Assembly: GCA_963714015.1 (NCBI GenBank)
Contig: OY970223.1
Span: forward strand, 2,752,001-2,816,000
Length of the DNA: 64,000 nt
Source of the DNA: Vulcanimicrobiota bacterium
GTDB taxonomy: Bacteria > Vulcanimicrobiota > Vulcanimicrobiia > Vulcanimicrobiales > Vulcanimicrobiaceae
Reading direction: 5' to 3'
Made by a program: the position numbers and the translations under genes. The notes beneath the pieces are model-generated. The model was not told the origin of the DNA. It made no database searches and saw only the letters and a program-made list of their open reading frames with translations. This document shows positions 8,463-27,187 of the stretch, in pieces (the first letter of the stretch is position 1; each line of letters opens with the position of its first letter).

Positions 8463-10556
8463 TTAGGGAACGCTCTGTCCCGTCACGGCTTGGATGAGAT
8501 GACCGGCAAAAGGAACGCCGACGCCGGTCACTTCGTCATAGCCGGCGCCCGCCACGTAGCCCGGGACGGGCGTCGCGAACGGGTTGGGCGTGTTGAGCGC
8601 ACCGGGTCCCGGGCTGTCCGGGTTCTGGCCGTAGACCACGTCGTAGAACACGTCGGGATAAGGAAGGGCAGCGGGCGCCAACCCGCCCGTATGCTTCTGC
8701 GCATAGATGCCGTAGAGCAAGGGCGCGGCGTTGCCCAGCCGATAGGGATGGCCGCCCGGCGCCGTGGCGCAGGAGGGCGTCTTCGAGCATGCTTCCAGCA
8801 CCAGCGCCCACATTGCCGCCATCTGCGGTGCAGCGACGCTGGTTCCGCCGATGTCCTCCGGACCGCCCCCGAACTGCGAGTTGACCTCGACCGTCACGCC
8901 GGTGTTCGGGTCGGCCAGCATCGCGGCGTCCGGAACCTCGCGCGTCGCCGCACCCGTCGAGGAATGCTGCGCCGCGATGGGCGGAAATATCGTCGATGGC
9001 CCGCCGCCCGATCCGCTGTGCCCGAGCACGCCCAGATTGTCCGGGGTTGTGGTCCCCCAAGTGGTCATCGGGGCCGTCATGCGGCCGAACTCGTCGAGGG
9101 GCGCAGTGACGCCGCCCACCGACGTGACCGACGGATCGCTTGCGGGATACTCTACGCAAGCACGCTGCGTGTTGACGAAGCATCCGGCGGCACCGTTGTC
9201 GCCGGAAGAGACAAAAACGGCAATGCCTTCCGCAGCCAGGGCGGCGAACTCTTCGGGCCCATAGCCCGCGCCTGTCGCGTCGTAGTACGCGCCGATCTCC
9301 TCGGGTTCACCGGCGCCCCAGCTAATCGAGACGACGTCGGCGGCGTCGTCCGCGATCGCCTGTTGAATCTCAGGATCCGCTTCCACCAAACCGATTTGCG
9401 GCGCACCGTAGTTGCCGTTCGGGTTGGGAGTAGCGGGCGCGGGCGGCGGCGTAGCGCACGGATTCGGAAAGAACGTCGGACAGTCCGAGGCATTGTATGC
9501 AAGATAAAAGAGCACGTTCGAGCCGGGTGCAAGTGTCGCGGTTTGCTGCGTGTCCAGTTGCGCTTCGACGTCCTCCGGATTGCATTTCGGCAGCGAACCG
9601 TTACAGTCCGGAGCCGTCACGGGCGGGGGAGACTGAAATCCCGCGGAGTACGGAAACTCTTGGGGATTCGGTGCCGGAAAATTCGGCGAAGGCGAGGCCG
9701 GCGCAGCCGTGGGGATGCCCGAAATCCCAAGTCCGGCAGCGACGCCGCTGGGCGTGACGGCGGCGATCGAAATCGGCGCCACTCTGGCGTGATAGAGCGC
9801 TCCGAGAGCCGCCGCGTCGGCGTCATGATTACTGACGACGTCGATCGGGCCGGTTCCGATGATACCGATCTTGATTCCGCTCCCGTCCAGAGGCGTTCCA
9901 CCAATCGACGTGCCGTACGCGCCTGTGAAATCGAACGCGGTCTGCACTTGCTCGGGCGCGTAACCGCCGAAAACACCGCTTCCGATGCGCGGAGGCGTGA
10001 CGATGAAGCGGCGGTTCAAATTCAGGCCGACCAAGTTGCCGACGGCGGTAACCGGCACCGCCGCGGGAATGTGCGGGGCACTCATCGGCGCGATGAATTG
10101 CCGGCCATTCTTTTCGTACACGCCGAAACGAGTGCCGAATGCGCGTTCCATCGCGCTCTGCGAACCTGCCACGGCCAGCGTCAGGCGCTGCGGCCAGCCC
10201 GCGGCTTGCAACCCTTGGGACGCGAAGTAGTGCGCGGCTGCATCGTAATCTTGCTGCGATGCGCCGAAACGTGCGGCGATTTGCTGCGGTGTGAGAAATT
10301 GCCGGTACAACGGCGAGGCCGGATCGCTCACCTCACGCGCGTATTGAATCAATGCGGTTGCGCTCTGCTGACGCACGAGCACGTTGACTTGCATGTATCC
10401 CGAATCAGCCGGACCCAGCAGCTGCGCACCGGAGAGGCGCTCTTGGCCCCACTCCAAACCGTTCGCGGGACCGGCGGGAATCGTCGATCCGCCTCCGCAT
10501 CCGCCTAGAATCGCGACGGCAAATACGGCGCCGATCAATTGCGCGTTAAACTTCAT
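8463..10556 (-). CDS. S53 (sedolisin/kumamolisin-like) peptidase lipoprotein with activation prodomain
   Basis: Lipobox LGGC; prodomain SPLYRQFLTPQQIAARFG; catalytic EAQLD, SSGDNG and GGTSVAAP; C-terminal GYDEVTGVGVP. Confidence 0.92.
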   Translation of the reverse strand: MKFNAQLIGAVFAVAILGGCGGGSTIPAGPANGLEWGQERLSGAQLLGPADSGYMQVNVLVRQQSATALIQYAREVSDPASPLYRQFLTPQQIAARFGASQQDYDAAAHYFASQGLQAAGWPQRLTLAVAGSQSAMERAFGTRFGVYEKNGRQFIAPMSAPHIPAAVPVTAVGNLVGLNLNRRFIVTPPRIGSGVFGGYAPEQVQTAFDFTGAYGTSIGGTPLDGSGIKIGIIGTGPIDVVSNHDADAAALGALYHARVAPISIAAVTPSGVAAGLGISGIPTAAPASPSPNFPAPNPQEFPYSAGFQSPPPVTAPDCNGSLPKCNPEDVEAQLDTQQTATLAPGSNVLFYLAYNASDCPTFFPNPCATPPPAPATPNPNGNYGAPQIGLVEADPEIQQAIADDAADVVSISWGAGEPEEIGAYYDATGAGYGPEEFAALAAEGIAVFVSSGDNGAAGCFVNTQRACVEYPASDPSVTSVGGVTAPLDEFGRMTAPMTTWGTTTPDNLGVLGHSGSGGGPSTIFPPIAAQHSSTGAATREVPDAAMLADPNTGVTVEVNSQFGGGPEDIGGTSVAAPQMAAMWALVLEACSKTPSCATAPGGHPYRLGNAAPLLYGIYAQKHTGGLAPAALPYPDVFYDVVYGQNPDSPGPGALNTPNPFATPVPGYVAGAGYDEVTGVGVPFAGHLIQAVTGQSVP

Positions 10557-15645: not shown

Positions 15646-16900
15646 ATGCAAGACCGCACCTTCGGATTCGCAACGCGCGCCATCCACGCCGGAGCCCCGC
15701 CCGATCCGGTCACCGGCGCGCGCGTGACCCCGATTCACCAGACGGCCGCATACGTCTTCGGCTCCACGGAGCAGGCAGCCGAACTCTTTCAGCCTGCGCA
15801 GCTACGGCCATATCTACAGCCGGATCAGCAATCCGACCGTGGCGGCATTCGAGGAGCGCATGGCGAGTCTGGAAGGCGGACTTGGCGCGATCGCCTTCTC
15901 GAGCGGACTTGCAGCGCAGCTCGGCATCGTGCTGACGCTTGCGCAGAACGGCGATCACATCGTCAGCTCGCAGAACGTCTACGGCGGTACGGTTACCCAG
16001 TTCAGCATCACGCTCAAGCGGATGGGCATCGAAACGGCGTTCGCGCCGGTGAACGACTACGAAGCGATACGCGCGGCGATCCGGCCGAACACGAGGATGC
16101 TGTTCGCCGAGACCATCGGCAATCCGTCGGGTACGCTGGCGGACGTCGACAAACTGGCACAGCTCGCGCATGGTGCCGGCATCCCGCTCGTCGTCGACAA
16201 CACCTTTGCATCGCCGGCCCTCTTCCGCCCAATCGAACATGGCGCCGACGTCGTCGTGCATTCCGCAACCAAATTCATCTCCGGACACGGCACAGTGATC
16301 GGCGGCGTGCTGATCGAGTCGGGCAAGTTCGCCTGGGACAGCGGGCGTTTTCCGCTCCTGTCTCAACCGAGCCCGGGGTATCATAATAAAGTCTTCACGG
16401 AGACGTTCGGCGAGTACGCATTTCTGATGCGCGCGCGGGCCGAAGTTCTTCGTGACGTCGGATCGCAGATGTCGCCCATGGATGCTTGGCTTTTGCTCAT
16501 CGGGCTGGAGACGCTTCCGATCCGCATGCGGGCGCACGTCGAGAACGCTGCAACGATCGTGCAATTTCTCAAAGGCCGTCCCGAAGTTGAATGGATCAAT
16601 ATCCCAGCGATGGGCTCGATCTTTACGTTCGGCATTCGCGGCGGCCGGGACGCGGGCCGCAGATTCATCGACGCGCTGGAGCTCTGGAGTCATCTGGCGA
16701 ACGTCGGAGATGCAAAGAGTCTGGTGATTCATCCGGCTTCGACGACGCATTCGCAGCTCGGCGACGACGAGATGCGCAATGCCGGCGTCGCCCCCGAGAT
16801 GATTCGGCTTTCCGTCGGGCTCGAAGACGCGGACGATCTCATTTGGGATCTCCAAAACGCGCTTCAGGCGGCAGCCCTTCCGGTGGGGGGTCGGGCGTGA
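15646..16900 (+). CDS. metY: O-acetylhomoserine aminocarboxypropyltransferase/sulfhydrylase (frameshift near 15788)
   Basis: FATRAIHAG, PIHQT, YSRISNPT (after shift), DNTFASP, HSATKF (PLP Lys), HLANVGDAKSL, IRLSVG. Confidence 0.9.
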
Positions 16901-17373
16901 TTCTCGACACGGTTGCGGCACGGCGCGCAATGCTTGCAAAGGCAAAACGCATTGCGATGGTCGGCGCTTCCGCTAATCCGCTCCGCCCGAGCTATACGGT
17001 ATTCAGCTATCTGCGCACACAGAGTCCGTTTGCGGTAGCGCCGATAAATCCGACGATAACCGAAATCGACGGCGTGAAAGCGTATCCGTCTATCGAGGCG
17101 TACGCCGCCGAAAACGGTCCACCGGACATCGTCGACGTCTTTCGCAAGCCGAGCGAAGTAGTCGACGTCGTGAACGATGCCATCCTGGCCGAGGCGCGCG
17201 CTGTTTGGTTTCAATACGGGGTGATCAACCCCGACGCGATCGAACTTGCGCTCAAAGCGGGGCTCGACGTCGTCGTCGACCGCTGTATCAAAGTGGAATG
17301 GGCGCGGCTCAACGGCGGCCTCTCGACCAGCGGGTTGAACAGCGGGCTCATTACCAGCCGCCGCCGCACGTGA
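16897..17373 (+). CDS. CoA-binding protein (YccU-like)
   Basis: IAMVGASANPLRPS, DIVDVFRK, VWFQYG, DRCIKVE; GTGA overlap with metY. Confidence 0.9.
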   Translation: MILDTVAARRAMLAKAKRIAMVGASANPLRPSYTVFSYLRTQSPFAVAPINPTITEIDGVKAYPSIEAYAAENGPPDIVDVFRKPSEVVDVVNDAILAEARAVWFQYGVINPDAIELALKAGLDVVVDRCIKVEWARLNGGLSTSGLNSGLITSRRRT

Positions 17374-18446
17374 TCTACTGCGACGAAGCCCAGACGCTCG
17401 ATGCCGAGATCCTCGAGTGCATCTCGGCCCGCAGCGTTCCGGACTTCGACGGCCTTGCGCTGCGCATTTTCGCACACCAACTTCGTTACAACGTGCCCTA
17501 CGCGCGTTATTGCGCCGCAATGGGTGTCACCCCCGATACGCCGCCGGCATCGTGGGAACGGATCCCGCCGGTTCCCGCCGCGGCATTCAAAGAAGCGCAG
17601 CTGTGCACGTTCGATTTTCGCCGCGCCGAGCTCAACTTTCAGACAAGCGGAACGACTACCGGGTCCGCCGGCGTGCATTACATGGAGACGCCGCGGCTGT
17701 ACGATGCGGCGCTGCTCGCCGGCTTCCATGACGCAATGCTGGCGCGCGATCCTCGCCCGCTGCGGTATTTGCTGCTGGTACCCAATCCGGCGGAACGCCC
17801 GCATTCTTCGCTCGGATACATGATGCGCAAAGTCGCGGACACGTACGGCGACGGACGGGAAGCGTGGCTGCTCGAAGGCGACGTCCTGCATTTAGACCGA
17901 TTCGTTAACCACGTTCGAGCGTGTGCCGCGGACGGCACGGCAGTCTGCATTGCGGGCACGGCTTTTGCATTCGTCAACCTGATCGATCTGCTGGCCGAAC
18001 GGCGAATTGGCGCATTGCCCCTGCCGGATGGCTCGCGAATCATGGAGACCGGCGGGTTCAAAGGACGCGCGCGGATAGTCGAACGCGCGAGCCTGTACGC
18101 CGAACTCTCCGCGGCTTTTGCTCTGCCGGAACAGCGAATCGTTGCCGAATACGGAATGACGGAGCTGACGAGTCAATACTATGACGATGCCGCGCGCGTG
18201 AAACGGCCGCCGGCGTGGCTGCGTCCGAGGGTCGTCGGTACCGACGGAAAGACGCTGCCCGAAGGCGTGGTTGGGACACTCGTGCACGTCGATTTGGGCA
18301 ACCGTTCCTCGTGCGTAGCGATTCAAACGGAAGATCTCGGCGTCGGCGTCGACGGCGGCATCGTGCTCATCGGACGCGAACACGGCGCGGAATTGCGCGG
18401 CTGTTCATTGGACGCCGAGCAGCTTCGAACGTTGGCCGCGCACTAG
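17370..18446 (+). CDS. LuxE-like acyl-protein synthetase (ANL adenylation superfamily)
   Basis: FQTSGTT, SSLGYM, METGGFKGR, EYGMTELTSQYY, IQTEDLG, IGR and RGCSL motifs typical of LuxE homologues. Confidence 0.87.
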   Translation: MIYCDEAQTLDAEILECISARSVPDFDGLALRIFAHQLRYNVPYARYCAAMGVTPDTPPASWERIPPVPAAAFKEAQLCTFDFRRAELNFQTSGTTTGSAGVHYMETPRLYDAALLAGFHDAMLARDPRPLRYLLLVPNPAERPHSSLGYMMRKVADTYGDGREAWLLEGDVLHLDRFVNHVRACAADGTAVCIAGTAFAFVNLIDLLAERRIGALPLPDGSRIMETGGFKGRARIVERASLYAELSAAFALPEQRIVAEYGMTELTSQYYDDAARVKRPPAWLRPRVVGTDGKTLPEGVVGTLVHVDLGNRSSCVAIQTEDLGVGVDGGIVLIGREHGAELRGCSLDAEQLRTLAAH

Positions 18447-19669
18447 TGACTGCGCTCAGCCGCGTTCCTGCCGCAAAGATCGTGCGCGCCGTCGCCTGCG
18501 CGGCCGAACGCTGGAGCGATGCTGATTTTCCGCCGCGCGTGCGAGCAACGGATCGAATCGCGGCGCGCACGGGCTATTCCGTGCCTATGGTCGAGTACGC
18601 ACTCGATCGCCTCTTCTTTCCGATTGACGAAGGGGAAGTAGCAGGCGTCATCGCAGCGGAACTAGGCAGCGTCGAAGCTTTGGATGGTTTTTGCAGGCGG
18701 TCCGGCAAACCGGACGCCTGGGCTCGCCCCGCCGGCAACGTCTGTATCATATCCAGCCGCACGACGATCGGCGTTGCACTTTATCCGGCCGTCTTTGCGC
18801 TCTGCGCGAAGTGCGACGTAACGGTCAAAGATCGCGAAGATGCGCTCGTCACGTCATTCTTTGAGACGCTCGGCGAAGAACTCGACGAGTTACGAATTTC
18901 CGCTCGCGCTTCAGCATGGAACTCGGTTGAAACGCAAGCGCCGGATCTCGACCGCTTCGATCTCGTCGTCGCGTTCGGCAGTGACGAAGCGCTGGCGCAC
19001 ATCGCGGCGAGCGTAGGCTACCCGCGCCGCTTCATCGGATACGGCTCCCGGATGAGCGCAGGCTACGTCGCGCGCGAGACGCTAGCGGCCGCGGACGTGC
19101 TTGCGCTCTGCGAGGGCGCTGCCCGCGATCTGTTGCTGTACGAGACCGAAGGCTGTCTTTCGCTGCATGCGCTGTTCGTCGAGCGCGGCGGCGACATCGA
19201 ACCATCGGAATTTGCGCGAAAGCTGGCGGACGCGTCGGAGCGCGCGTCGATCGAGTTTCCGCCGGGGCGGATCGAGCCGTATCAATCCGCGCAATTCGTC
19301 CAGCGCCGCAACCTTGCGGCGTTTCGCGCCGCCGCGGGCCGAGGCGCAGTTTTTGCAGACGAAGTCTCGCGGATGGCCGTGGTACTCGATCCGTCGCATG
19401 ACGAGCCGCCGCCGTTTTTGCCGCGTATGCTCGGCGTGCTGCCGGTTGACGCACCGGCGCAGGCACTTGCATACCTTCGGCAACATCATCTGCCGCTCGA
19501 GGCATTCGCGCTTTCATCGCCGCGGCCGGACGTAGTGCAAATGGCCGTCGATGCGGGTGCAGTGCGTCTTGCGCGCTTCGGCGAATTGCAGGCACCGTCG
19601 CTTGGGAACGACCACGGCGGCCGCCCGCGCATCGCGGAATTCGTGCAATGGATCGACAAGACGATTTGA
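18446..19669 (+). CDS. LuxC-like acyl-CoA/acyl-protein reductase (ALDH fold)
   Basis: TGYSVPMV, VVAFGSDEA, GYGSRMS, YETEGCLS (catalytic Cys position), HGGRPRI C-terminus. Confidence 0.85.
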   Translation: MTALSRVPAAKIVRAVACAAERWSDADFPPRVRATDRIAARTGYSVPMVEYALDRLFFPIDEGEVAGVIAAELGSVEALDGFCRRSGKPDAWARPAGNVCIISSRTTIGVALYPAVFALCAKCDVTVKDREDALVTSFFETLGEELDELRISARASAWNSVETQAPDLDRFDLVVAFGSDEALAHIAASVGYPRRFIGYGSRMSAGYVARETLAAADVLALCEGAARDLLLYETEGCLSLHALFVERGGDIEPSEFARKLADASERASIEFPPGRIEPYQSAQFVQRRNLAAFRAAAGRGAVFADEVSRMAVVLDPSHDEPPPFLPRMLGVLPVDAPAQALAYLRQHHLPLEAFALSSPRPDVVQMAVDAGAVRLARFGELQAPSLGNDHGGRPRIAEFVQWIDKTI

Positions 19670-20938
19670 ACGGCGAGGAACTGGAAGAAGTTCGCACCGC
19701 AATACCCGGACCGCGTACGCGGGAACTCGCCGGTAAATTGCGCCGAGTGGAGTCGCGTAACGTCACCTTCGTAGACGAACGCTTTCCGGTTTTTTGGGAG
19801 TCAAGTTGCGGGGCCAACGTCACGGACGTCGACGGCAACCGGTACATCGATCTCACTGCGGGGTTTGGCGTCGCCGGGACGGGTCACAGCAATCCGCGTG
19901 TCGCGGCCGCAATCGCGGAGCAAGCCGGACGCATGATGCACGCCATGGGCGACGTGCACCCCGCCGAAGCAAAGGTCTCCCTGCTCGAAAAACTCGCGGC
20001 GATAACGCCCGGCGGCTTGAGCAAAACGTTTCTGGCATCCACGGGCGCCGAGGCGGTCGAAGCGGCGATGAAGACGGCCATAATCGCTACCGGCAAGTCG
20101 CGCTTCGTTGCTTTTCGCGGCGCTTACCACGGGCTGTCGTTCGGTGCGCTGGAGATTTGCGGAATCGAAAAATTCCGCGATCCCTTTCGCACCATGCTGC
20201 CGGACCGCGCGCACTTCTTGGACTTTCCGCAAAGTCCGGACGCACTCGATGACGTTCGGCAAGTGATGGACGCCGGCGGTGACGTCGCCGCAGTCTTTAT
20301 CGAGCCGGTACAAGCGCGCGGGGGAAACTACGTTGCCCCGGACGGATATCTGCGGGGGCTGCGCGAGCTCTGCACGACGCGTGGTGTGTTGCTCATTTGC
20401 GATGAGATCTACACGGGATTCGGACGAACGGGGCAAATGTTCGCGTGCGATTGGGAAAACGTCGCTCCGGATATCCTGTGCATCGGGAAAGCGATGGCGA
20501 ACGGTTTCCCAATCTCCGCGGCCGTCGCAGCTCCCAATATCATGGACGCTTGGCCGGAATCGCCCGGAGAGGCGCTTCACACTTCGACGTATTTGGGAAA
20601 CCCCATGGCCTGCGCCGCCGCGCTCGCGAACATCGGCGAGATCGAGCGGTTGAAGCTGCCTCAGCGCGCTCGCGAGCTGGGCTCGCTTCTTGAGGAACGT
20701 CTTACGCTGCTCTGCGCAAATCACCGCCTGCCTCAGCCGCGCGGGCGCGGTTTGCTGTGGGGATTCGAACTCGAGGATGGTGCCCGGGCTTCAAAGCTCG
20801 TAAAGGACGCGCTGAGAAACGGCATCATCGTTTTGCAAGCCGGGCCGCTGGGCAACGTCGTTTCGATCGCTCCGCCGCTCGTCATCTCGCGGCGCCAGCT
20901 CTTTGCATGCCGTCGACGTTCTCGAGGAGTGCTTATGA
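19648..20938 (+). CDS. Class III (omega) aminotransferase, GabT/ArgD-like; C-terminal 1-nt frameshift near 20908
   Basis: DVDGNRYIDL, GAEAVEAA, IEPVQARGG, DEIYTGFGRTG, IGKAMANG; the shifted frame ends AVDVLEECL* at TGA 20936-20938. Confidence 0.9.
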
Positions 20939-21960
20939 CGTACAAGGTCGGTCTGGTTGGTTCCGGGTTCGGAGTACGCGCGCACTTGCCCGCGTATAAC
21001 GCTCATCCGCAATTCGAAGTCGTCGCCATCGCTTCGCCGCATAGCGCCGCCGGGATCGCCAAACAACGCGGAATCGCGTCTTTCACATCGTGCGCGGAAC
21101 TGCTGAGCGAGGCCGACGTCGATATCGTCGACGTCTCGGCGCCGCCGTTCACGCACCACCGCGACGTTCTCGACGCACTCGCTGCCGGTAAGCACGTCAT
21201 TTGCGAGAAGCCGTTTGCGCTCAACGTCGCTCAAGCGCAAGAGATGGCCGCAGCCGCGAGCGCTTCGGGCAAAGCCACGGCCGTCATGCACGAGTTCCGC
21301 TGGGTTCCGCAGCGAATGGCAATCAAGGAATTGATCGTCAACGAGCATCTTACGCCGCTGCGTGAGATAGAGATCGTTCAATTGAGCACGAATCTTCGCG
21401 CCGAAGATACCTCCCGACCGCGAGGATGGTGGTTCGAGCGTGAACGAGGCGGAGGTATGGCCGGCGCGCTGCTCTCACACGCGATCGACTGCGCCACCTG
21501 GTGGGCCGGACGGCCGCCCGTTCGCAGCACGGGGTATCTGCGCACCGCAAATCCGGAGCGCCGCGACAGTGAGGGTCAATTCACCAGCACGTCGGACGAC
21601 GGGGCATTCGCGCTGGTCGACTACGGCGACGGCCTCGTCGCGCGGCTTTGCGTCGATGGAACGGTTGCGGTCGAATCAGCGACGTACGCAGCGCACGCCG
21701 AAAATCGCACGGCGGTCGCGAGCGGACTCAGCGCAATCGATCTGCGCCTGTTCAGCGTCGATACCGACGAGACGGCGGAGTTGGAGTGCAAGCCCTCGCC
21801 CTACCAAAAGTTTGCGGCCGTCGATCCGCTGGTTCCCCTCGTCATGCAGCTGCTGGACGAATTCCTCAAGCAAATCGAAACCGGCGCCGGCGACGTACCG
21901 ACCTTCGCCGAAGCCGTCGAAACGCAAAAGGTTCTGGAATCGATCGGCTACGCGACGTAG
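20935..21960 (+). CDS. Gfo/Idh/MocA family NAD(P)-dependent oxidoreductase
   Basis: Own GAGGAG RBS and ATG; VGLVGSGFG, GKHVICEKPFA, GGGMAG. Confidence 0.88.
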   Translation: MTYKVGLVGSGFGVRAHLPAYNAHPQFEVVAIASPHSAAGIAKQRGIASFTSCAELLSEADVDIVDVSAPPFTHHRDVLDALAAGKHVICEKPFALNVAQAQEMAAAASASGKATAVMHEFRWVPQRMAIKELIVNEHLTPLREIEIVQLSTNLRAEDTSRPRGWWFERERGGGMAGALLSHAIDCATWWAGRPPVRSTGYLRTANPERRDSEGQFTSTSDDGAFALVDYGDGLVARLCVDGTVAVESATYAAHAENRTAVASGLSAIDLRLFSVDTDETAELECKPSPYQKFAAVDPLVPLVMQLLDEFLKQIETGAGDVPTFAEAVETQKVLESIGYAT

Positions 21961-21987: not shown

Positions 21988-23661
21988 TTACGGATAAACG
22001 GGATCGTGAAGGGCCGCAGCCATTGCGCGATAGACGTCGAGCTCGCCGCAGCCTTGGTGATCGGCGTCGGGTGCTGAAGTCAGCAATGGACGAGCGCTCG
22101 CGCACAGCAGATTGCTGATTGTCGCCGGATCGTCGGGAACGCCTGCGCTCAAAAGCAGCGCTGCGGCTCCGGCGACGTGCGGTGCGGCCTGCGATGTCCC
22201 AATCAGCGACGCGCGGCAATCGATGAGGTTTCCATTGGGATCGGGCGTGCAGTTCGCGCCGCCCGATGCTGTAGAGGAGTAGATGTTTTCGACCCAATGG
22301 AGGTTGTCGACGTCACCGCAGTTCGCGCCTTCGAGTTCCATCACGCACGAATCTCCTCCGGGCGCGATCAAACCCCAAGAATGCGAGTTCGCATTGTAAT
22401 TTGAGTAAGAGGCAACCTTCAAAAAGACGTTCGCCGGATTGGCGTCGTCGATGGCTGAGGAGCCCACGGCAATGACACCCGGATCTGCCGCCGGATATGA
22501 GAGGGCCGGATTTCCGAGGCCCGTGCTGGAGTTCCCGTTGCCCGCCGCTGCGACGACGACGACCTTTTGCGCAATCGCATTCTCGACCGCAGTTTCTTCA
22601 TCGCCGGCCTGTTCGTCGGCGCCCAAGCTCATGTTGATGACTTTCGCCCCGTGGCTCACCGCGTCGGTTACTGCGACGGCAATGTCTGCACTCGAGGCGG
22701 AACATTCGCCGTTCTGGCACGGCGGGTTGGGAAACACTTTGAAGATCATCAACGGTGCGTTGTATGCAACCCCCGCAAAACCGATGCCGTTGTTGGCAGT
22801 CGCTGCCGCAATGCCGGTAACGTTCGTTCCATGCCCATCATCGTCGTGCATCGCGGCCGTTCCGGGCGTCACCACGTCGTTCAACACTTGCTCGGCGTAG
22901 ATGATGCGGCTTGCCGGTTGCAAATCGGGATGCGTCAAGTCCGCGCCGGTGTCGATAATGGCGATGGGGAAAGCAGCGCTGCCGCCGGCGGCTCCGGGAT
23001 GTGCGACGCCGGTGCCGTTGGACGGATCGGCATATCCCCATGCGTCCGGCGCACAGATCACGTGCAGATCCCACTGCCCTTCCGAGCTGGGATTCTCGTA
23101 AAGCGGCGGCTCGTTCGAAGGCGCGAAACCGAGCTCGTACGGATCTTGCGTAAAGGCCGGACTGGAAGATTCCAGGTGCCGGTAGACGGATTGTCCGGCC
23201 GAGAGCACGTCGGGATCCCGTTCGAACTGTGCAATGGCCGCTGTTTCGGAACCCGCCGCAACGCGAACGAATCGCATGACCTCATCCAGAGCCCGAAAAT
23301 CCAACGCCCCCGCCGGCAGCGAGCCTTTCATACGCGTCAAGTAACCGCGCCGCTCGTACGTGACGAAAATGGAACCGGGAACGAATCCGCGATCGTGAGG
23401 CGCTGCCAAACGGCGCGTAATTAGCCGCGCGCCGAATGCGGCTGAGCGGTAGCGCGACTGGGCGGTCGGATTGCTTTCGCCGTCGCAGTTTATTGCCGAG
23501 GACGCAATTGCCGGTGCCACCGCGATCGCCGGCTGCGGCGTTCCGGCCGGAACGCTTATGGATGCAGGGACGTTTGAGCTGCCTCCGCCGCCGCATCCTG
23601 CCGCTGCAAGCAGAGCGATCAATGCCGCCCCGCGACCTGCACCGGTTCCGCGCCGTTTCAC
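21988..23661 (-). CDS. S8 subtilisin-like serine peptidase lipoprotein (paralogue 1)
   Basis: AAGC-GGGG lipobox; IIDTG, DGHGT, AAAGN and GTSQAAPHVAG catalytic motifs. Confidence 0.92.
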   Translation of the reverse strand: MKRRGTGAGRGAALIALLAAAGCGGGGSSNVPASISVPAGTPQPAIAVAPAIASSAINCDGESNPTAQSRYRSAAFGARLITRRLAAPHDRGFVPGSIFVTYERRGYLTRMKGSLPAGALDFRALDEVMRFVRVAAGSETAAIAQFERDPDVLSAGQSVYRHLESSSPAFTQDPYELGFAPSNEPPLYENPSSEGQWDLHVICAPDAWGYADPSNGTGVAHPGAAGGSAAFPIAIIDTGADLTHPDLQPASRIIYAEQVLNDVVTPGTAAMHDDDGHGTNVTGIAAATANNGIGFAGVAYNAPLMIFKVFPNPPCQNGECSASSADIAVAVTDAVSHGAKVINMSLGADEQAGDEETAVENAIAQKVVVVAAAGNGNSSTGLGNPALSYPAADPGVIAVGSSAIDDANPANVFLKVASYSNYNANSHSWGLIAPGGDSCVMELEGANCGDVDNLHWVENIYSSTASGGANCTPDPNGNLIDCRASLIGTSQAAPHVAGAAALLLSAGVPDDPATISNLLCASARPLLTSAPDADHQGCGELDVYRAMAAALHDPVYP

Positions 23662-23832
23662 GTTTTCGTACGTCTCCCAAAGCAAATGGCAACGTGAAAC
23701 TGACCGGCAGCTCGCGCCGCCGGATCAGCGGCTCCGCCGGCTGAGTAGCATGCGAAAGGGCGGAGGCCGTTACGGCTCTTTCCCGCCCTGAAGCTCTAGA
23801 AGGTTAGGACTGACGTACCTATGTGGCGTGAC

Positions 23833-25497
23833 TTACGGGTAGCTGGTATCTCCCAGCGTTTCCGCCATCGCGTGATAGACGTTGAGCTCGCCGCAGCCTT
23901 GATGTGACGCGTTCGTGTCCGATTGCTGAATGACCGTCGCCGAATTGCAGATAAGGCTCTGCATTGCGCTGGGGCTCTGTTGTGCGCCGGCGCTGAGCAG
24001 CAAAGCCACCGCGCCGGAAACATGCGGCGTTGCCTGCGAGGTCCCGATGATCAAGATGCGACAGTCGACTGTCGAGTTCTGGCTCTGAAAGTCGGGCGTG
24101 CACGAACCGGGCTGAGAGGCCGTGCTGGAGTAAATATTTTCGATCCAGTGCAGATCGTCGGTATCGGCGCAGTTCGTGCTGGACGGCGTGTTCGGACAGG
24201 CGTCGCCGCCGGGCGCAACTACGCCCCAGCTATTCGAATTCGGTTCGTAGTTCGAATACGAGGCGACCTTGAGATTTGGGCTGGACGCATTCGTGTCGTC
24301 GATCGCTGAAGCGCCGACGGCGATGACGCCCGGATCCGCTGCGGGGTAGTCCAGAGTCGGCTGGGCAATGCCGGTATTCGAATCGCCATTACCCGCCGCA
24401 GCCACTACCACGACGTTTGCCGCGATCGCATTGGCGACCGCACTTTCCTCATCGCCTGCAGCCGAGCTGCCGCCCAAGCTGAGGTTAATGACGTTGGCCC
24501 CGTTCGTCACCGCGTCGTTTATTGCGGTCGCGATATCGGATGTTGAAGCGGTACATCCGCCGCTGCCGCATTGCGACGGATCCTGGAAGACTTTGAAAAT
24601 CATGAGCGACGCATTGTAAGCAACCCCGGCAAAGCCTAGTCCATTGTTGCCCGTTGCGGCGGCGATTCCGGCGACGTCCGTTCCGTGACCGTCGTCGTCG
24701 TGCATCGACGCAATACCCGTCGTCACCTGACCGTTCACGACTTGCTCTGCAAACGCAATGCGGCTTGAAGCCGGTTGAAGCTCGGGATGGGTGAGGTCGG
24801 CGCCGGTATCGACAATCGCGATCTTTATGCCGGCACTTCCTCCGGCAGCCGCCGGCTGCGCGGTGCCCGTACTATTCGACGCGCTGGAATAGCCCCACGC
24901 GTCGGGTGCGCATACCACGTGGAGATCCCACTGGCCCGGCGTGCTCGCGCCTTCGTACAGCGGCGGCACGTTGTCGGGAGAAAATCCGACGGCGTACGGA
25001 TCGTTGGTATAGACGGGCGTTGCCGAGTCCAGATGACGGTACGCCGAACGGCCCACCGACAACACACCCGGAGACGTCCGCAGCGATGCCATCGCGGAAG
25101 CTTCCGTTCCGGGACGCACGTGAAGAATTTGAACCACTTTGCCGATGTGCGCAAAGTCCAGTTCCTTGACGACTTGTCCGCCGTAGCGTGCAGCGCTCCG
25201 CGTCAAGACCGCGCGCTTGGCTTGATAGAGCGCCCGATCGTAGGTGACCGTGATTGCGCCGGGTATGTAGCCGGATTCGAGCGCCGAAATTCGCGCGCGC
25301 CCGCGGCGCGCCGTCCTCATCTCGAAATTCGCCGCCAAACGCGCCTGCGGGGCGGTTGGATTTGACTGGTTGCAGAGAATGCCCACGGAGCCCGGAGGAG
25401 GGGTCGGCGTAACGTTGGTGCTTCCGCCGCAGGCCGAAAGAGCCGCAGTTGCTCCCATCATCGCAAGCACTTGAAACCCGAGTCTATGTCCGATCAT
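23833..25497 (-). CDS. S8 subtilisin-like serine peptidase lipoprotein (paralogue 2)
   Basis: LSAC-GG lipobox; IVDTG, DGHGT, GTSQATPHVSG; GGGAG RBS. Confidence 0.92.
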   Translation of the reverse strand: MIGHRLGFQVLAMMGATAALSACGGSTNVTPTPPPGSVGILCNQSNPTAPQARLAANFEMRTARRGRARISALESGYIPGAITVTYDRALYQAKRAVLTRSAARYGGQVVKELDFAHIGKVVQILHVRPGTEASAMASLRTSPGVLSVGRSAYRHLDSATPVYTNDPYAVGFSPDNVPPLYEGASTPGQWDLHVVCAPDAWGYSSASNSTGTAQPAAAGGSAGIKIAIVDTGADLTHPELQPASSRIAFAEQVVNGQVTTGIASMHDDDGHGTDVAGIAAATGNNGLGFAGVAYNASLMIFKVFQDPSQCGSGGCTASTSDIATAINDAVTNGANVINLSLGGSSAAGDEESAVANAIAANVVVVAAAGNGDSNTGIAQPTLDYPAADPGVIAVGASAIDDTNASSPNLKVASYSNYEPNSNSWGVVAPGGDACPNTPSSTNCADTDDLHWIENIYSSTASQPGSCTPDFQSQNSTVDCRILIIGTSQATPHVSGAVALLLSAGAQQSPSAMQSLICNSATVIQQSDTNASHQGCGELNVYHAMAETLGDTSYP

Positions 25498-25514
25498 CCG
25501 GGATTCTCCCAAAT

Positions 25515-25548
25515 AAGAAAGTGGCCGACAGGCATCGGCCACCTTCTT
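25515..25548 (-). terminator. Hairpin/probable terminator between S8 paralogues 3 and 2
   Basis: Minus strand AAGAAGGTGGCCGA-TGCCTG-TCGGCCACTTTCTT followed by ATTT. Confidence 0.6.
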
Positions 25549-25599
25549 GTTCGTCACGCGGGCTACTGACCCGCTAGGCACGGTTAAGAACGCGTGAGA

Positions 25600-27187
25600 T
25601 TACTGAGTCATTGCGTAGTTGACCGCGTTTGCGGCGTCGACTCTGCCGCAACCGGCCTTCGGATCGGGACTCGAGACGCTGGGTATCTTGTCTGCGGTCG
25701 AGCAGAGTCCGGTTACAACCTGAGCTGGGGTGAGGTTTGGATTGATGCTGAGCATGAGCGAAACGACGCCCGCGACATGCGGAGTTGATTGCGACGTTCC
25801 TTCGTAGAGCGCCTCGCAGTCGGTTTGTAGTGCCTGGTCTTCGCCGCAGTACGGATCGTTTGCAATCTCGCTTGACGTAATGTTCGCAATCCAGTGCAGA
25901 TTGTCGGAATCGCCGTTTCCGGAGATGTTGCCGCCGGGGGCGACGAGGTACGTTCCGCCGTCACTCCGCGGCGTCGTCGTGTAGTCGGAATAGGCTGACG
26001 CGAAGACTTCCGTAGGCGGATTAGTAGCGTCGTTCAAACCAGACGCTCCGACCGCAACCACTCCGGGATATGCGGCAGGACAGCCCAAGTTACCCTGACC
26101 GTCGTTGCCCGCAGCAGCAACGACCACGACGCCGGCCTTGATCGCGTTTTCGACCGCCGTTTCTTCAATTTGGTCTTGGCATTGCGAGAGCGGACCGGTT
26201 GCACCGAGACTGAGATTGATGACTTTTGCACTGTTCGCCACGGCGTCGTTGATCGCGCTTACCTCGTCGACGTCGGTGGACTGGCACTGTGCCGGCGGAT
26301 TCGAAACTTCGCAGCCGCTACTCGGATCGGTCGGAAATATGCGATAGGCCAGGAGCGGCGCATCCCAAGCGACGCCGGCAAACCCGAAGCCGTTGCCCGT
26401 ATCAGCATCAGCGATACCGGCAACGTTCGTACCGTGACCGTCGGTGTCGGTAACGTACGGGCCGGTCGTCTGCGGATTGTTGCTCGGATACGTGACGAAG
26501 CACTCGGTGCGGACAATCTTTCCGCCGCTCAAGTCCTGCAGCGTCACGTCGACGCCGGTATCGATCACGGCGATCGGCGCGCCGATGATGGGTGCGCTCG
26601 GGAAGAGGTTCCATGCACCCTGCACGTTCATCGCATGCAAGTCCCATTGACCGAGCAGGCTGCTCGTTTCCCAATAGGGACTGCTCGTACCGGGCAGGCC
26701 GGCATAGAACGGGTCATTGGCTATGTTGTTGGACAACCGGTGCCGGTACTGCGCTTGCTCGACGGATTTCACACCCGCGGTTTGGCGAAGATGCGCGATC
26801 GCTGCTGATTCTCGCGAAGGATCCACCGCGAAGGTGCGCGAGCGCAACCCGAGACCGTTGAACTGAACTTCCGGCCGCGTCTGCAGCGCATACGAAGCCG
26901 CGGCGCGTTCTATCGAATCGCTCGACGCGTCGCTTGCGTACGTTACGGTAATCAAGCCCGGCACATAGCGGGCGGTCTTAGCAACCAGCGTCGTGGCGCC
27001 ATGGCGCGAAATACCGGCCGCGCGCCGGTTCAAGCTGGAAGGAGAACTGCCCGTCGTCGGACAGGCGTCCGGATTGGGAGTCGGCGTCGCAGTGGGCGTC
27101 GGAGTGGGGCTGCCGCCTCCGCCGCACGCCGACAGCACCAGCGAACCGAGGAGCAATACGAGACAAAAATCGAGAGGGACGCTTCAC
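25600..27187 (-). CDS. S8 subtilisin-like serine peptidase lipoprotein (paralogue 3; frameshift near 27165 in the signal peptide)
   Basis: AAGGA RBS and GTG at 27187 (VKRPSRF), then LLLGSLVLSACGGGG in another frame; VIDTG, DGHGT, GTSQSTPHVAG. Confidence 0.88.

Follow-up and report, generated by a model that had tools for sequence, protein, structure and literature searches.

We analyzed a 64,000-nucleotide stretch of DNA (the window) from a Vulcanimicrobiota bacterium (GenBank assembly GCA_963714015.1, contig OY970223.1), which corresponds to positions G000:C1:2752001-2816000 of a 3.56-Mb single-contig genome, here called G000, with a marker completeness of 89.6%. Our subject is a run of six genes on its forward strand and, within it, a triad encoding a LuxE-like protein, a LuxC-like protein and an aminotransferase. 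In order, the genes encode the O-acetylhomoserine sulfhydrylase MetY (15646..16900; NCBIfam, and Pfam Cys_Met_Meta_PP at 339.7 bits), a CoA_binding_2 protein of 158 aa (16897..17373; Pfam, 117.3 bits), a LuxE-like acyl-protein synthetase of 358 aa (17370..18446), a LuxC-like thioester reductase of 407 aa (18446..19669), a class III aminotransferase dependent on pyridoxal phosphate (PLP), referred to as AT (19648..20938), and a Gfo/Idh/MocA oxidoreductase of 341 aa (20935..21960; Pfam GFO_IDH_MocA, 94.9 bits), referred to as Gfo. These profile matches confirmed the six same-strand genes and their families as given in a preliminary description of the window. The profile check that it had proposed for the triad returned Pfam LuxE (PF04443) at 43.7 bits (cut-off 24.9), LuxC (PF05893) at 126.1 bits (cut-off 21) and Aminotran_3 at 338.9 bits.

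The same description had all six genes overlapping at their junctions. All five junction strings were present in the sequence, i.e., GTGA at 16897, GTGA at 17370, TAG/GTG at 18444-18448, an ATG start of AT at 19648 that lies 22 nt ahead of the LuxC-like stop at 19669, and ATGA at 20935. Two details required revision: the LuxC-like start is 18446 rather than 18444, and the stop/start overlap of AT and Gfo at 20935 exists only once one T is removed. The assembled sequence contains two 1-nt frameshifts that had not been mentioned before, by which metY and AT are interrupted as assembled. In metY, an extra C near 15792, recognized by DNA alignment with three relatives and by three-frame translation, divides the gene into 15646-15792 and 15794-16900. 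In AT, one extra nucleotide within the T run at 20902-20904, close to the 3' end, causes AT and Gfo to be read as a single open reading frame (ORF) of 770 aa (19648-21960). A 189-nt contig from a public soil run, otherwise identical, lacks exactly one base at 20902 (one contig, depth 2.7). This was the sole DNA run listed as containing part of the stretch, and RNA runs with it were not listed; no contig spans the metY site. After frame correction the C-terminus of AT agrees with those of relatives, in which metY and AT are both intact and AT and Gfo are separate genes. The panC gene (G000:C1:167198-167999) and a second queA-like copy (G000:C1:1710717-1711677) are also split; in all, at least four genes of the G000 assembly are split by single frame changes, and relatives have marker completeness of 93-99%. 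The split genes and the lower completeness of G000 suggest that short base runs were assembled with indel errors and that the genes are not pseudogenes, and both frameshifts are likely to be errors of this kind in the assembly.

The genes surrounding the run are housekeeping genes (CTP synthase, prmC, RF1, leuCD, subtilases, cinA and nadE), and no biosynthetic-cluster features were found in the window context. The earlier statement that the window lacks luxA and luxB held for the whole genome, since PF00296 (Bac_luciferase) gave no match anywhere in its 3.56 Mb; luxD was not searched for. Furthermore, the LuxE-like and LuxC-like proteins scored 43.3 and 14.6 bits against NCBIfam equivalog models of the lux operon (NF052244 and NF052251), whose cut-offs are 550 and 750. 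By equivalog score and by the lack of luxA and luxB, they are members of the two families and not true lux-operon LuxE and LuxC.

The LuxE-like protein aligned with profile positions 23-384 of the 391 of PF04443, and its only match among PDB sequences was LuxE of Photobacterium phosphoreum (7xc6_E, E 5.3e-11). The segments SGTT (93-96), ETGGFKGR (226-233), YGMxE (261-265), D308 and GCS (344-346) were identical in at least 31 of the 32 LuxE-like sequences that we aligned. The Gly-Cys-Ser segment, 14 residues from the end, was found in every sequence whose C-terminus was recovered (that of L011 was unaligned). As described for the P. phosphoreum enzymes, LuxE carries the acyl group on Cys364, near its C-terminus, and the relay runs from an adenylate to a thioester on this cysteine, then to a thioester on a LuxC cysteine, and finally to reduction by NADPH (PMC12041015). 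Cys345 of the LuxE-like protein would match the acyl-accepting Cys364, an equivalence drawn by C-terminal position only.

A sequence search of PDB with the LuxC-like protein gave no match. Its AlphaFold2 model (pLDDT 90.8) had LuxC (7xc6_A) as the best Foldseek match (E 1.8e-21, TMq 0.84); the next match had an E value of 6.3e-15, and the best TMq among the others, which were other aldehyde dehydrogenases, was 0.70. The model thus predicts a LuxC-type fold that is distinct from other aldehyde dehydrogenases. A single cysteine, C237, was invariant in 29 LuxC-like sequences.

AT was compared with GabT, PatA and ArgD of E. coli K-12 in an alignment of 32 Eremiobacterota AT sequences. It shares with these enzymes the fold and the PLP-site lysine, aspartate and threonine: K281, D252 and T314, corresponding to GabT K268, D239 and T297, were conserved in all 32. 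In contrast, AT differs from them at GabT R141, E211 and R398, residues that we take to define substrate and 2-oxoglutarate binding and that we verified in the sequence from E. coli K-12. At these positions the window AT has L163, R224 and S406, and the 32 sequences have Leu (31) or Met (1), Arg (32/32), and Ser, Ala, Thr or Val, respectively, with Tyr or Phe at GabT Q242. Because the substrate residues of GabT, PatA and ArgD are replaced, AT is not an enzyme of those types. Its best PDB sequence matches were putrescine and GABA (γ-aminobutyrate) aminotransferases, with E values down to 1e-72, and all of its NCBIfam equivalog scores were below the cut-offs. The resulting pocket signature, Phe, Leu, Arg, Tyr and a residue other than Arg at GabT positions 50, 141, 211, 242 and 398, was also present in ATs of a sister family (f2) and of another family in the same class (f3). 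G000 carries approximately ten class III aminotransferases.

To describe how far the gene set is conserved, we used matches to the LuxC-like protein at E <= 1e-10, which were found in 201 of 206 genomes of the window's own family (f1), in 3 of 3 of f2 and, weakly and at ~31% identity, in 17 of 22 of f3. This tally and those of PanC and PanD given below include up to 10 unpublished genomes (G128, G178, G212, G230, G232, G237, G245, G247, G263 and G275), which supplied none of the DNA analyzed here. We then scored, by tblastn with the window proteins, the gene content of 31 LuxC-centred loci (29 from f1, one each from f2 and f3), a non-random set picked for long contigs and genus spread. AT lay directly 3' of LuxC in 31/31 loci and in all three families, which answers in the affirmative the question raised earlier of whether luxC and the aminotransferase co-occur in relatives. 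LuxE was upstream in 29/31 loci and Gfo 3' of AT in 28/31, the CoA-binding gene was present in 25/31 (the f2 and f3 loci being among the six without it), and metY was present in 22/31 and absent from nine. In genus g4, LuxC and AT are together, LuxE is ~200 kb away behind rpsD-rpoA, the CoA-binding gene stays with metY rather than with LuxE (L027, L028), and no Gfo orthologue was detected in 4 of 5 genomes.

The six genes therefore do not hold together as one unit. Since some loci lack metY, the CoA-binding gene or Gfo, the core consists of LuxE, LuxC and AT. The metY gene is an unrelated neighbour outside the module, the gene for the CoA_binding_2 protein is probably another, and Gfo is a dispensable accessory. 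The triad behaves as a core gene set in a housekeeping context, as illustrated by the position of LuxE behind rpsD-rpoA in g4.

Several other arrangements were seen around these genes. In four of the 29 loci with LuxE, a gap of ~1.3 kb separates LuxE from LuxC, and in three of the four it holds an opposite-strand DUF1565 gene (PF07602, ~430-450 aa); in L010, the ORF tested gave no match. DUF1565 genes are located at L007:10625-11917, L014:10621-11931, L017:8095-9444 and L019:8117-9439, the last of these directly upstream of LuxC-AT in a g4 locus. One predicted protein of 818 aa (P0140), encoded on a 4.6-kb contig and close to the LuxC-like family of Eremiobacterota (383.6 bits), has LuxC and Aminotran_3 domains in one chain, perhaps through a genuine fusion, perhaps through a frameshift artefact where the genes overlap. 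In other families of the phylum, a more canonical LuxE (129 bits) stands beside a protein of 885 aa in which LuxC (309 bits) is fused to an AMP-binding domain, and no aminotransferase accompanies them. Pfam confirmed this architecture in one locus (L023:7474-11978, genome G072); in L024, L025 and L206-L211, what was seen was a LuxC match inside a long open frame. The LuxE and LuxC-AMP-binding fusion is a separate system from the triad.

Altogether, the conserved adenylation motifs and C-terminal cysteine of the LuxE-like protein, the LuxC cysteine and structural model, and the adjacency of LuxC and AT in 31/31 loci support the part of the preliminary description that saw here a two-component carboxylate reductase, dependent on ATP and NAD(P)H, feeding a PLP transaminase. 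The predicted properties of the three proteins suggest that they should form a carrier-free relay that turns a carboxylate into a primary amine. If they act as LuxE-LuxC does (PDB 7XC6), the LuxE-like protein would adenylate the acid with ATP and keep it as a thioester on Cys345, the acyl group would then move to Cys237 of the LuxC-like protein for reduction to the aldehyde by NAD(P)H, and AT would aminate the aldehyde.

A candidate substrate came from the queuosine pathway. G000 has FolE2, Tgt and QueA, and a queD gene with a QueE-type radical SAM gene immediately 3' of it (1499624-1500552), while profile searches of this genome did not find QueC or QueF. Thus, of the canonical pathway, the five components FolE/FolE2, QueD, QueE, Tgt and QueA are present, and the gap falls between QueE and Tgt. 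We examined these genes in 101 genomes of the phylum (G000-G100, a sample containing none of the unpublished genomes), of which 38 are G000 and members of f1-f3 and 63 belong to other families. QueD was found in 38/38 of the former and 31/63 of the latter, Tgt in 37/38 and 61/63, canonical QueC (at least 150 bits) in 0/38 and 30/63, and QueF in 0/38 and 12/63. QueE, scored with TIGR04508, was found in 34/38 and was adjacent to queD where coordinates were listed; this score is specific to the model, and the other families are not comparable. TIGR04508 found QueE in 0/4 genomes of f3, and in one of these (G041) tblastn showed QueE beside QueD. Weak QueC matches occurred in f1 (27 matches, 25-37 bits), and the one that was checked was MnmA (tRNA_Me_trans, 223.7 bits). 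Among the QueD-positive genomes of other families, 28/31 had canonical QueC. This pattern of QueC loss and triad presence is as non-orthologous displacement predicts.

Further evidence was obtained from metagenomes. A protein-cluster search with a query from the locus returned LuxC-family clusters only, mostly from Vulcanimicrobiota, and the names attached to homologues put G000 within Eremiobacterota/Vulcanimicrobiota, near metagenome-assembled genomes of Baltobacteraceae and Vulcanimicrobiaceae type. The LuxC-like profile matched 727 representative clusters (50% identity) at E <= 1e-30; 32 more distant LuxC-like matches were aligned, and a scan of metagenome contigs with the alignment gave 80 loci. 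These were annotated by tblastn and Pfam. The Pfam annotation covered 150 ORFs in 22 loci, out of the 55 that reach 4.5 kb, together with a selection of ORFs in 13 loci linked to que genes or AT. A separate search of genome contigs for related loci gave close relatives only, and these loci were used for their taxon labels alone: of 80, 69 were Eremiobacterota/Vulcanimicrobiota, six were only 'uncultured bacterium' or 'bacterium', and five were Acidoferrum, Acidiferrales or Verrucomicrobiia; the last five come from one series of metagenome-assembled genomes, so that a binning error is possible. Among the 80 metagenome loci, arrangements linked to que genes were found in nine, which come from a few related groups: QueE-AT-LuxE-LuxC in L185, L189 and, with ~1.5 kb between AT and LuxE, L187; QueD-QueE-LuxE-LuxC in L198; LuxC-QueD in L200 and L201; and QueG-AT-LuxE-LuxC in L145, L148 and L182. 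The limited queries used revealed no que gene in most of the remaining 71 loci.

The ATs that lie directly behind QueE in L185, L187 and L189 are 47-49% identical to the window AT and are its reciprocal best hits. Against G000 they scored 378-401 bits with the window AT and 226-235 bits with the next paralogue, and they share its five-residue pocket signature. The ATs of the L145 and L175 type are a different, GabT-like subtype, and in G000 they match other paralogues best. In L187 and L189, QueE is preceded by Gfo genes that are not orthologous to the window Gfo; since the L187 Gfo failed the reciprocity comparison, the recurrence of a Gfo neighbour is a family-level resemblance only.

A separate LuxE/LuxC branch without AT was located 3' of same-strand TPP riboswitches, with 12 Rfam matches of 57-73 bits in 11 of 16 loci (L124-L129, L147, L153, L156, L162 and L164; e.g., L147:1180-4967). 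Genes for NMT1/THI5-like ABC transporters occur in L124 and L125, ABC genes in L126 and L147, and ThiE in L133, and L147 has a Zn alcohol dehydrogenase between the riboswitch and LuxE. This branch looks like an undescribed module for the reduction or salvage of a thiamine-pyrimidine carboxylate. It follows from this sister branch that the LuxE/LuxC clade serves cofactor pathways and not fatty acids alone.

We therefore considered whether the acid used by the triad could be the QueE product, 7-carboxy-7-deazaguanine (CDG), which in the canonical pathway is converted to preQ1 (7-aminomethyl-7-deazaguanine) by way of preQ0 (PMC13740343). CDG is the most likely substrate. CDG and preQ1 differ by precisely the change that the relay would make, from R-COOH through R-CHO to R-CH2NH2. 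The pathway gap in G000, the phyletic complementarity and the QueE-linked orthologous ATs all point to this acid, and the core-gene behaviour of the triad and the cofactor role of the TPP-riboswitch branch also speak for it. On this model, the relay would convert CDG to 7-formyl-7-deazaguanine and then to preQ1, would take the place of both QueC (CDG to preQ0) and QueF (preQ0 to preQ1), and would deliver its product to Tgt and QueA. The proposed intermediate is a known compound, reported for variants of QueF as a product of hydrolysis (PMC13740343). On balance, and with modest confidence, we favour the view that the triad carries out these two conversions in place of QueC and QueF in this tRNA-modification pathway.

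A broader form of this proposal is more tentative, and we would sooner expect some part of it to fail than all of it to hold. In this form, the triad would be the sole route from CDG to preQ1 in the class Eremiobacteria, with 7-formyl-7-deazaguanine as a true intermediate, and the wider clade would be a hidden family of heteroaromatic-carboxylate reductases in cofactor and modified-base pathways, in which one branch makes preQ1 and the TPP-riboswitch branch takes a thiamine-pyrimidine carboxylate to the aldehyde or alcohol.

A number of observations weigh against the assignment of the triad to preQ1 synthesis. In Eremiobacterota the triad is not beside que genes: queD-queE is ~1.27 Mb away in G000 and ~16 kb away in the f3 genome G041. 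The phyletic complementarity within the phylum may reflect a single ancestral event, as kin are not independent, and in f3 the triad is confirmed in one genome (L026). Three genomes outside f1-f3 (G040, G052 and G098) have QueD without QueC; the LuxC-like matches of G040 and G052 that were fetched have no AT or que gene beside them and no triad, and G098 has no LuxC-like match. One f1 genome, G063, has the triad together with an atypical QueC-domain protein (L205:1158-2366), the only QueC-domain match that strong in the triad-bearing families; this protein, of 403 aa, combines a CxxCxxCC zinc/iron-chelating domain with a QueC-like domain (101 bits). The absence of QueF is weak evidence because its model (81 positions) also failed to detect it in many families that have QueC. 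Rfam searches revealed no preQ1 riboswitch: they gave no match at all in the window (gathering threshold), only rRNA in the loci of seven relatives, and no match of any kind in 17 que- or AT-linked metagenome loci. In a LuxC tree built by a quick method, the Eremiobacterota proteins formed their own long branch and were not grouped with the que-linked clades; because of that long branch, the tree neither links them to these clades nor separates them. Finally, the LuxE and LuxC described in PMC12041015 use fatty acids (C14).

Among the alternatives, the one that best survives these data is that the triad makes another primary amine from a small, aromatic or heterocyclic acid, that preQ1, preQ0 or queuine is salvaged, and that QueD and QueE are kept for some other 7-deazapurine or by inertia. 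We regard this as unlikely, though it deserves to be kept in view. The lack of linkage between the triad and que genes inside the phylum fits it, as does the mixed function of the LuxE/LuxC clade, which includes TPP-riboswitch and ABC-transporter contexts and many loci without AT or que genes. The same is true of an exporter-type gene of the MFS_3 (secretion-effector-type) family that lies 3' of AT on the same strand in the f3 locus (L026:6352-7632). In addition, family f6 has Tgt in 19/19 genomes and QueD and QueC in 1/19 each, and from this near-absence beside Tgt it follows that salvage occurs in the phylum. However, QueD is kept in 38/38 and QueE was found in 34/38 of the triad-bearing set without QueC, which is hard to explain if CDG is unused, and the same AT subtype lies directly behind QueE elsewhere.

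A less probable alternative is the one given in the preliminary description, i.e., that a fatty or dicarboxylic acid is converted to a fatty amine or an omega-amino acid, with Gfo acting on the aldehyde or imine; the product might serve an envelope lipid. The C14 substrates of the characterised enzymes favour it, and there are precedents for coupling a reductase to a transaminase in TabE/TabA and TamH (bioRxiv 10.1101/2025.08.11.669332). Hydrophobic residues occupy GabT positions 50, 141 and 242 in the AT pocket, and the polar lipids of a cultured relative, Vulcanimicrobium alpinus, are all listed as unidentified in its description (PMC9758169). Nevertheless, no acyl carrier protein, thioesterase, fatty-acid or lipid gene was seen beside the triad in any locus examined, the arginine that binds the omega-carboxylate in GabT is Leu or Met in 32/32 ATs, arguing against omega-amino acids, and the QueC/QueF gap and the QueE-linked orthologous ATs would be left unexplained. 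As AT lacks the substrate arginines of GabT, PatA and ArgD, and phyletic and neighbourhood evidence points to CDG, a fatty amine or omega-amino acid product is disfavoured.

That the module replaces a canonical step toward a common metabolite, namely beta-alanine via malonate semialdehyde, ornithine or 5-aminolevulinate, is hardly credible: PanC is present in G000 and PanD was not found there, but some PanC-positive, PanD-negative families lack the triad (f11 3/3, f18 3/3, f19 4/5, f20 13/16), PanD-bearing genomes such as G214 keep it, and G000 has both a pair of strong matches to Semialdhyde_dh, which we take as Asd and ArgC, and a GlutR_N (HemA) gene adjoining a class III aminotransferase taken as HemL. 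We rejected the beta-alanine role since the PanD gap is phylum-wide whether or not the triad is present and gives no phyletic support, and we rejected replacement of an arginine or heme step on the Semialdhyde_dh and GlutR_N matches. Across the phylum, PanC was found in 252/301 genomes and PanD in 8/301.

In comparison with known systems, the triad shares with P. phosphoreum LuxC-LuxE the two protein families and the predicted relay. It differs from that system in that its genome has no luciferase, its proteins score far under the equivalog cut-offs, the LuxC-like protein is ~70 residues shorter than LuxC and 18% identical to it in the structural alignment, the relay feeds a transaminase, and a deazapurine acid, not myristate, is its probable substrate. 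With the canonical QueC/QueF route, the proposed pathway would have in common its start at CDG and its end at preQ1, the use of ATP and NADPH, and its place between QueE and Tgt. However, the triad's protein families are unrelated to QueC and QueF, which were not found in triad-bearing families apart from the QueC-domain protein of G063, and the proposed route has an aldehyde intermediate and a PLP-dependent transfer of nitrogen from an amino acid, whereas the canonical route passes through an amide and a nitrile and uses ammonia.

A precedent for the chemistry is found in tambjamine BE-18591 biosynthesis, for which a LuxC-cluster acyl-ACP reductase (TabE) and a class III transaminase (TabA), like the fused TamH, are described as taking a thioester to an aldehyde and then to a primary amine (bioRxiv 10.1101/2025.08.11.669332). 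As described there, these enzymes act on C12 acyl-ACP (acyl carrier protein) in secondary-metabolite clusters. In contrast, the triad has no carrier protein and has a LuxE-type activator, and its genes, which lie in a housekeeping context, have the character of core genes for an entire bacterial class. Luciferase-less luxC and luxE genes have also been described in flagellin glycosylation islands (PMC4875605, PMC7874193). The flagellin-island luxC/luxE genes and TabE/TabA are precedents for the logic of the triad, and we found no paper on a route from the triad to preQ1. Searches outside the subscription journals retrieved no paper that connects preQ1 with LuxC or with a carboxylic acid reductase, and none pairing 'eremiobacter' with lux terms was among the matches listed. 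The supplements of the V. alpinus paper have no entry for queuosine, queE, queC, acyl-CoA reductase or LuxE.

Among the neighbouring genes, three tandem subtilase (Peptidase_S8) paralogues lie 3' of Gfo on the minus strand (window positions 21988-27156), and a kumamolisin-type S8/S53 gene lies upstream, also on the minus strand (8466-10556). Subtilase copies recur beside the cluster in many relatives.

Queuosine biosynthesis is a near-universal bacterial tRNA-modification pathway that is treated as settled, and Eremiobacterota are a globally abundant, almost uncultured soil phylum. If our proposal is true, a route independent of QueC and QueF would constitute a non-orthologous replacement of two steps of this pathway, one of them catalyzed by QueF, which a 2026 review presents as a class without a close functional analogue in primary metabolism (PMC13740343). 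Enzymes of the LuxE/LuxC type would gain a role far from bioluminescence, and the triad would offer an enzymatic way to aminomethyl compounds that starts from heteroaromatic acids and involves no nitrile. For the organisms themselves, the proposal would correct the metabolic reconstruction of Eremiobacterota, whose genomes would otherwise be scored as queuosine auxotrophs.

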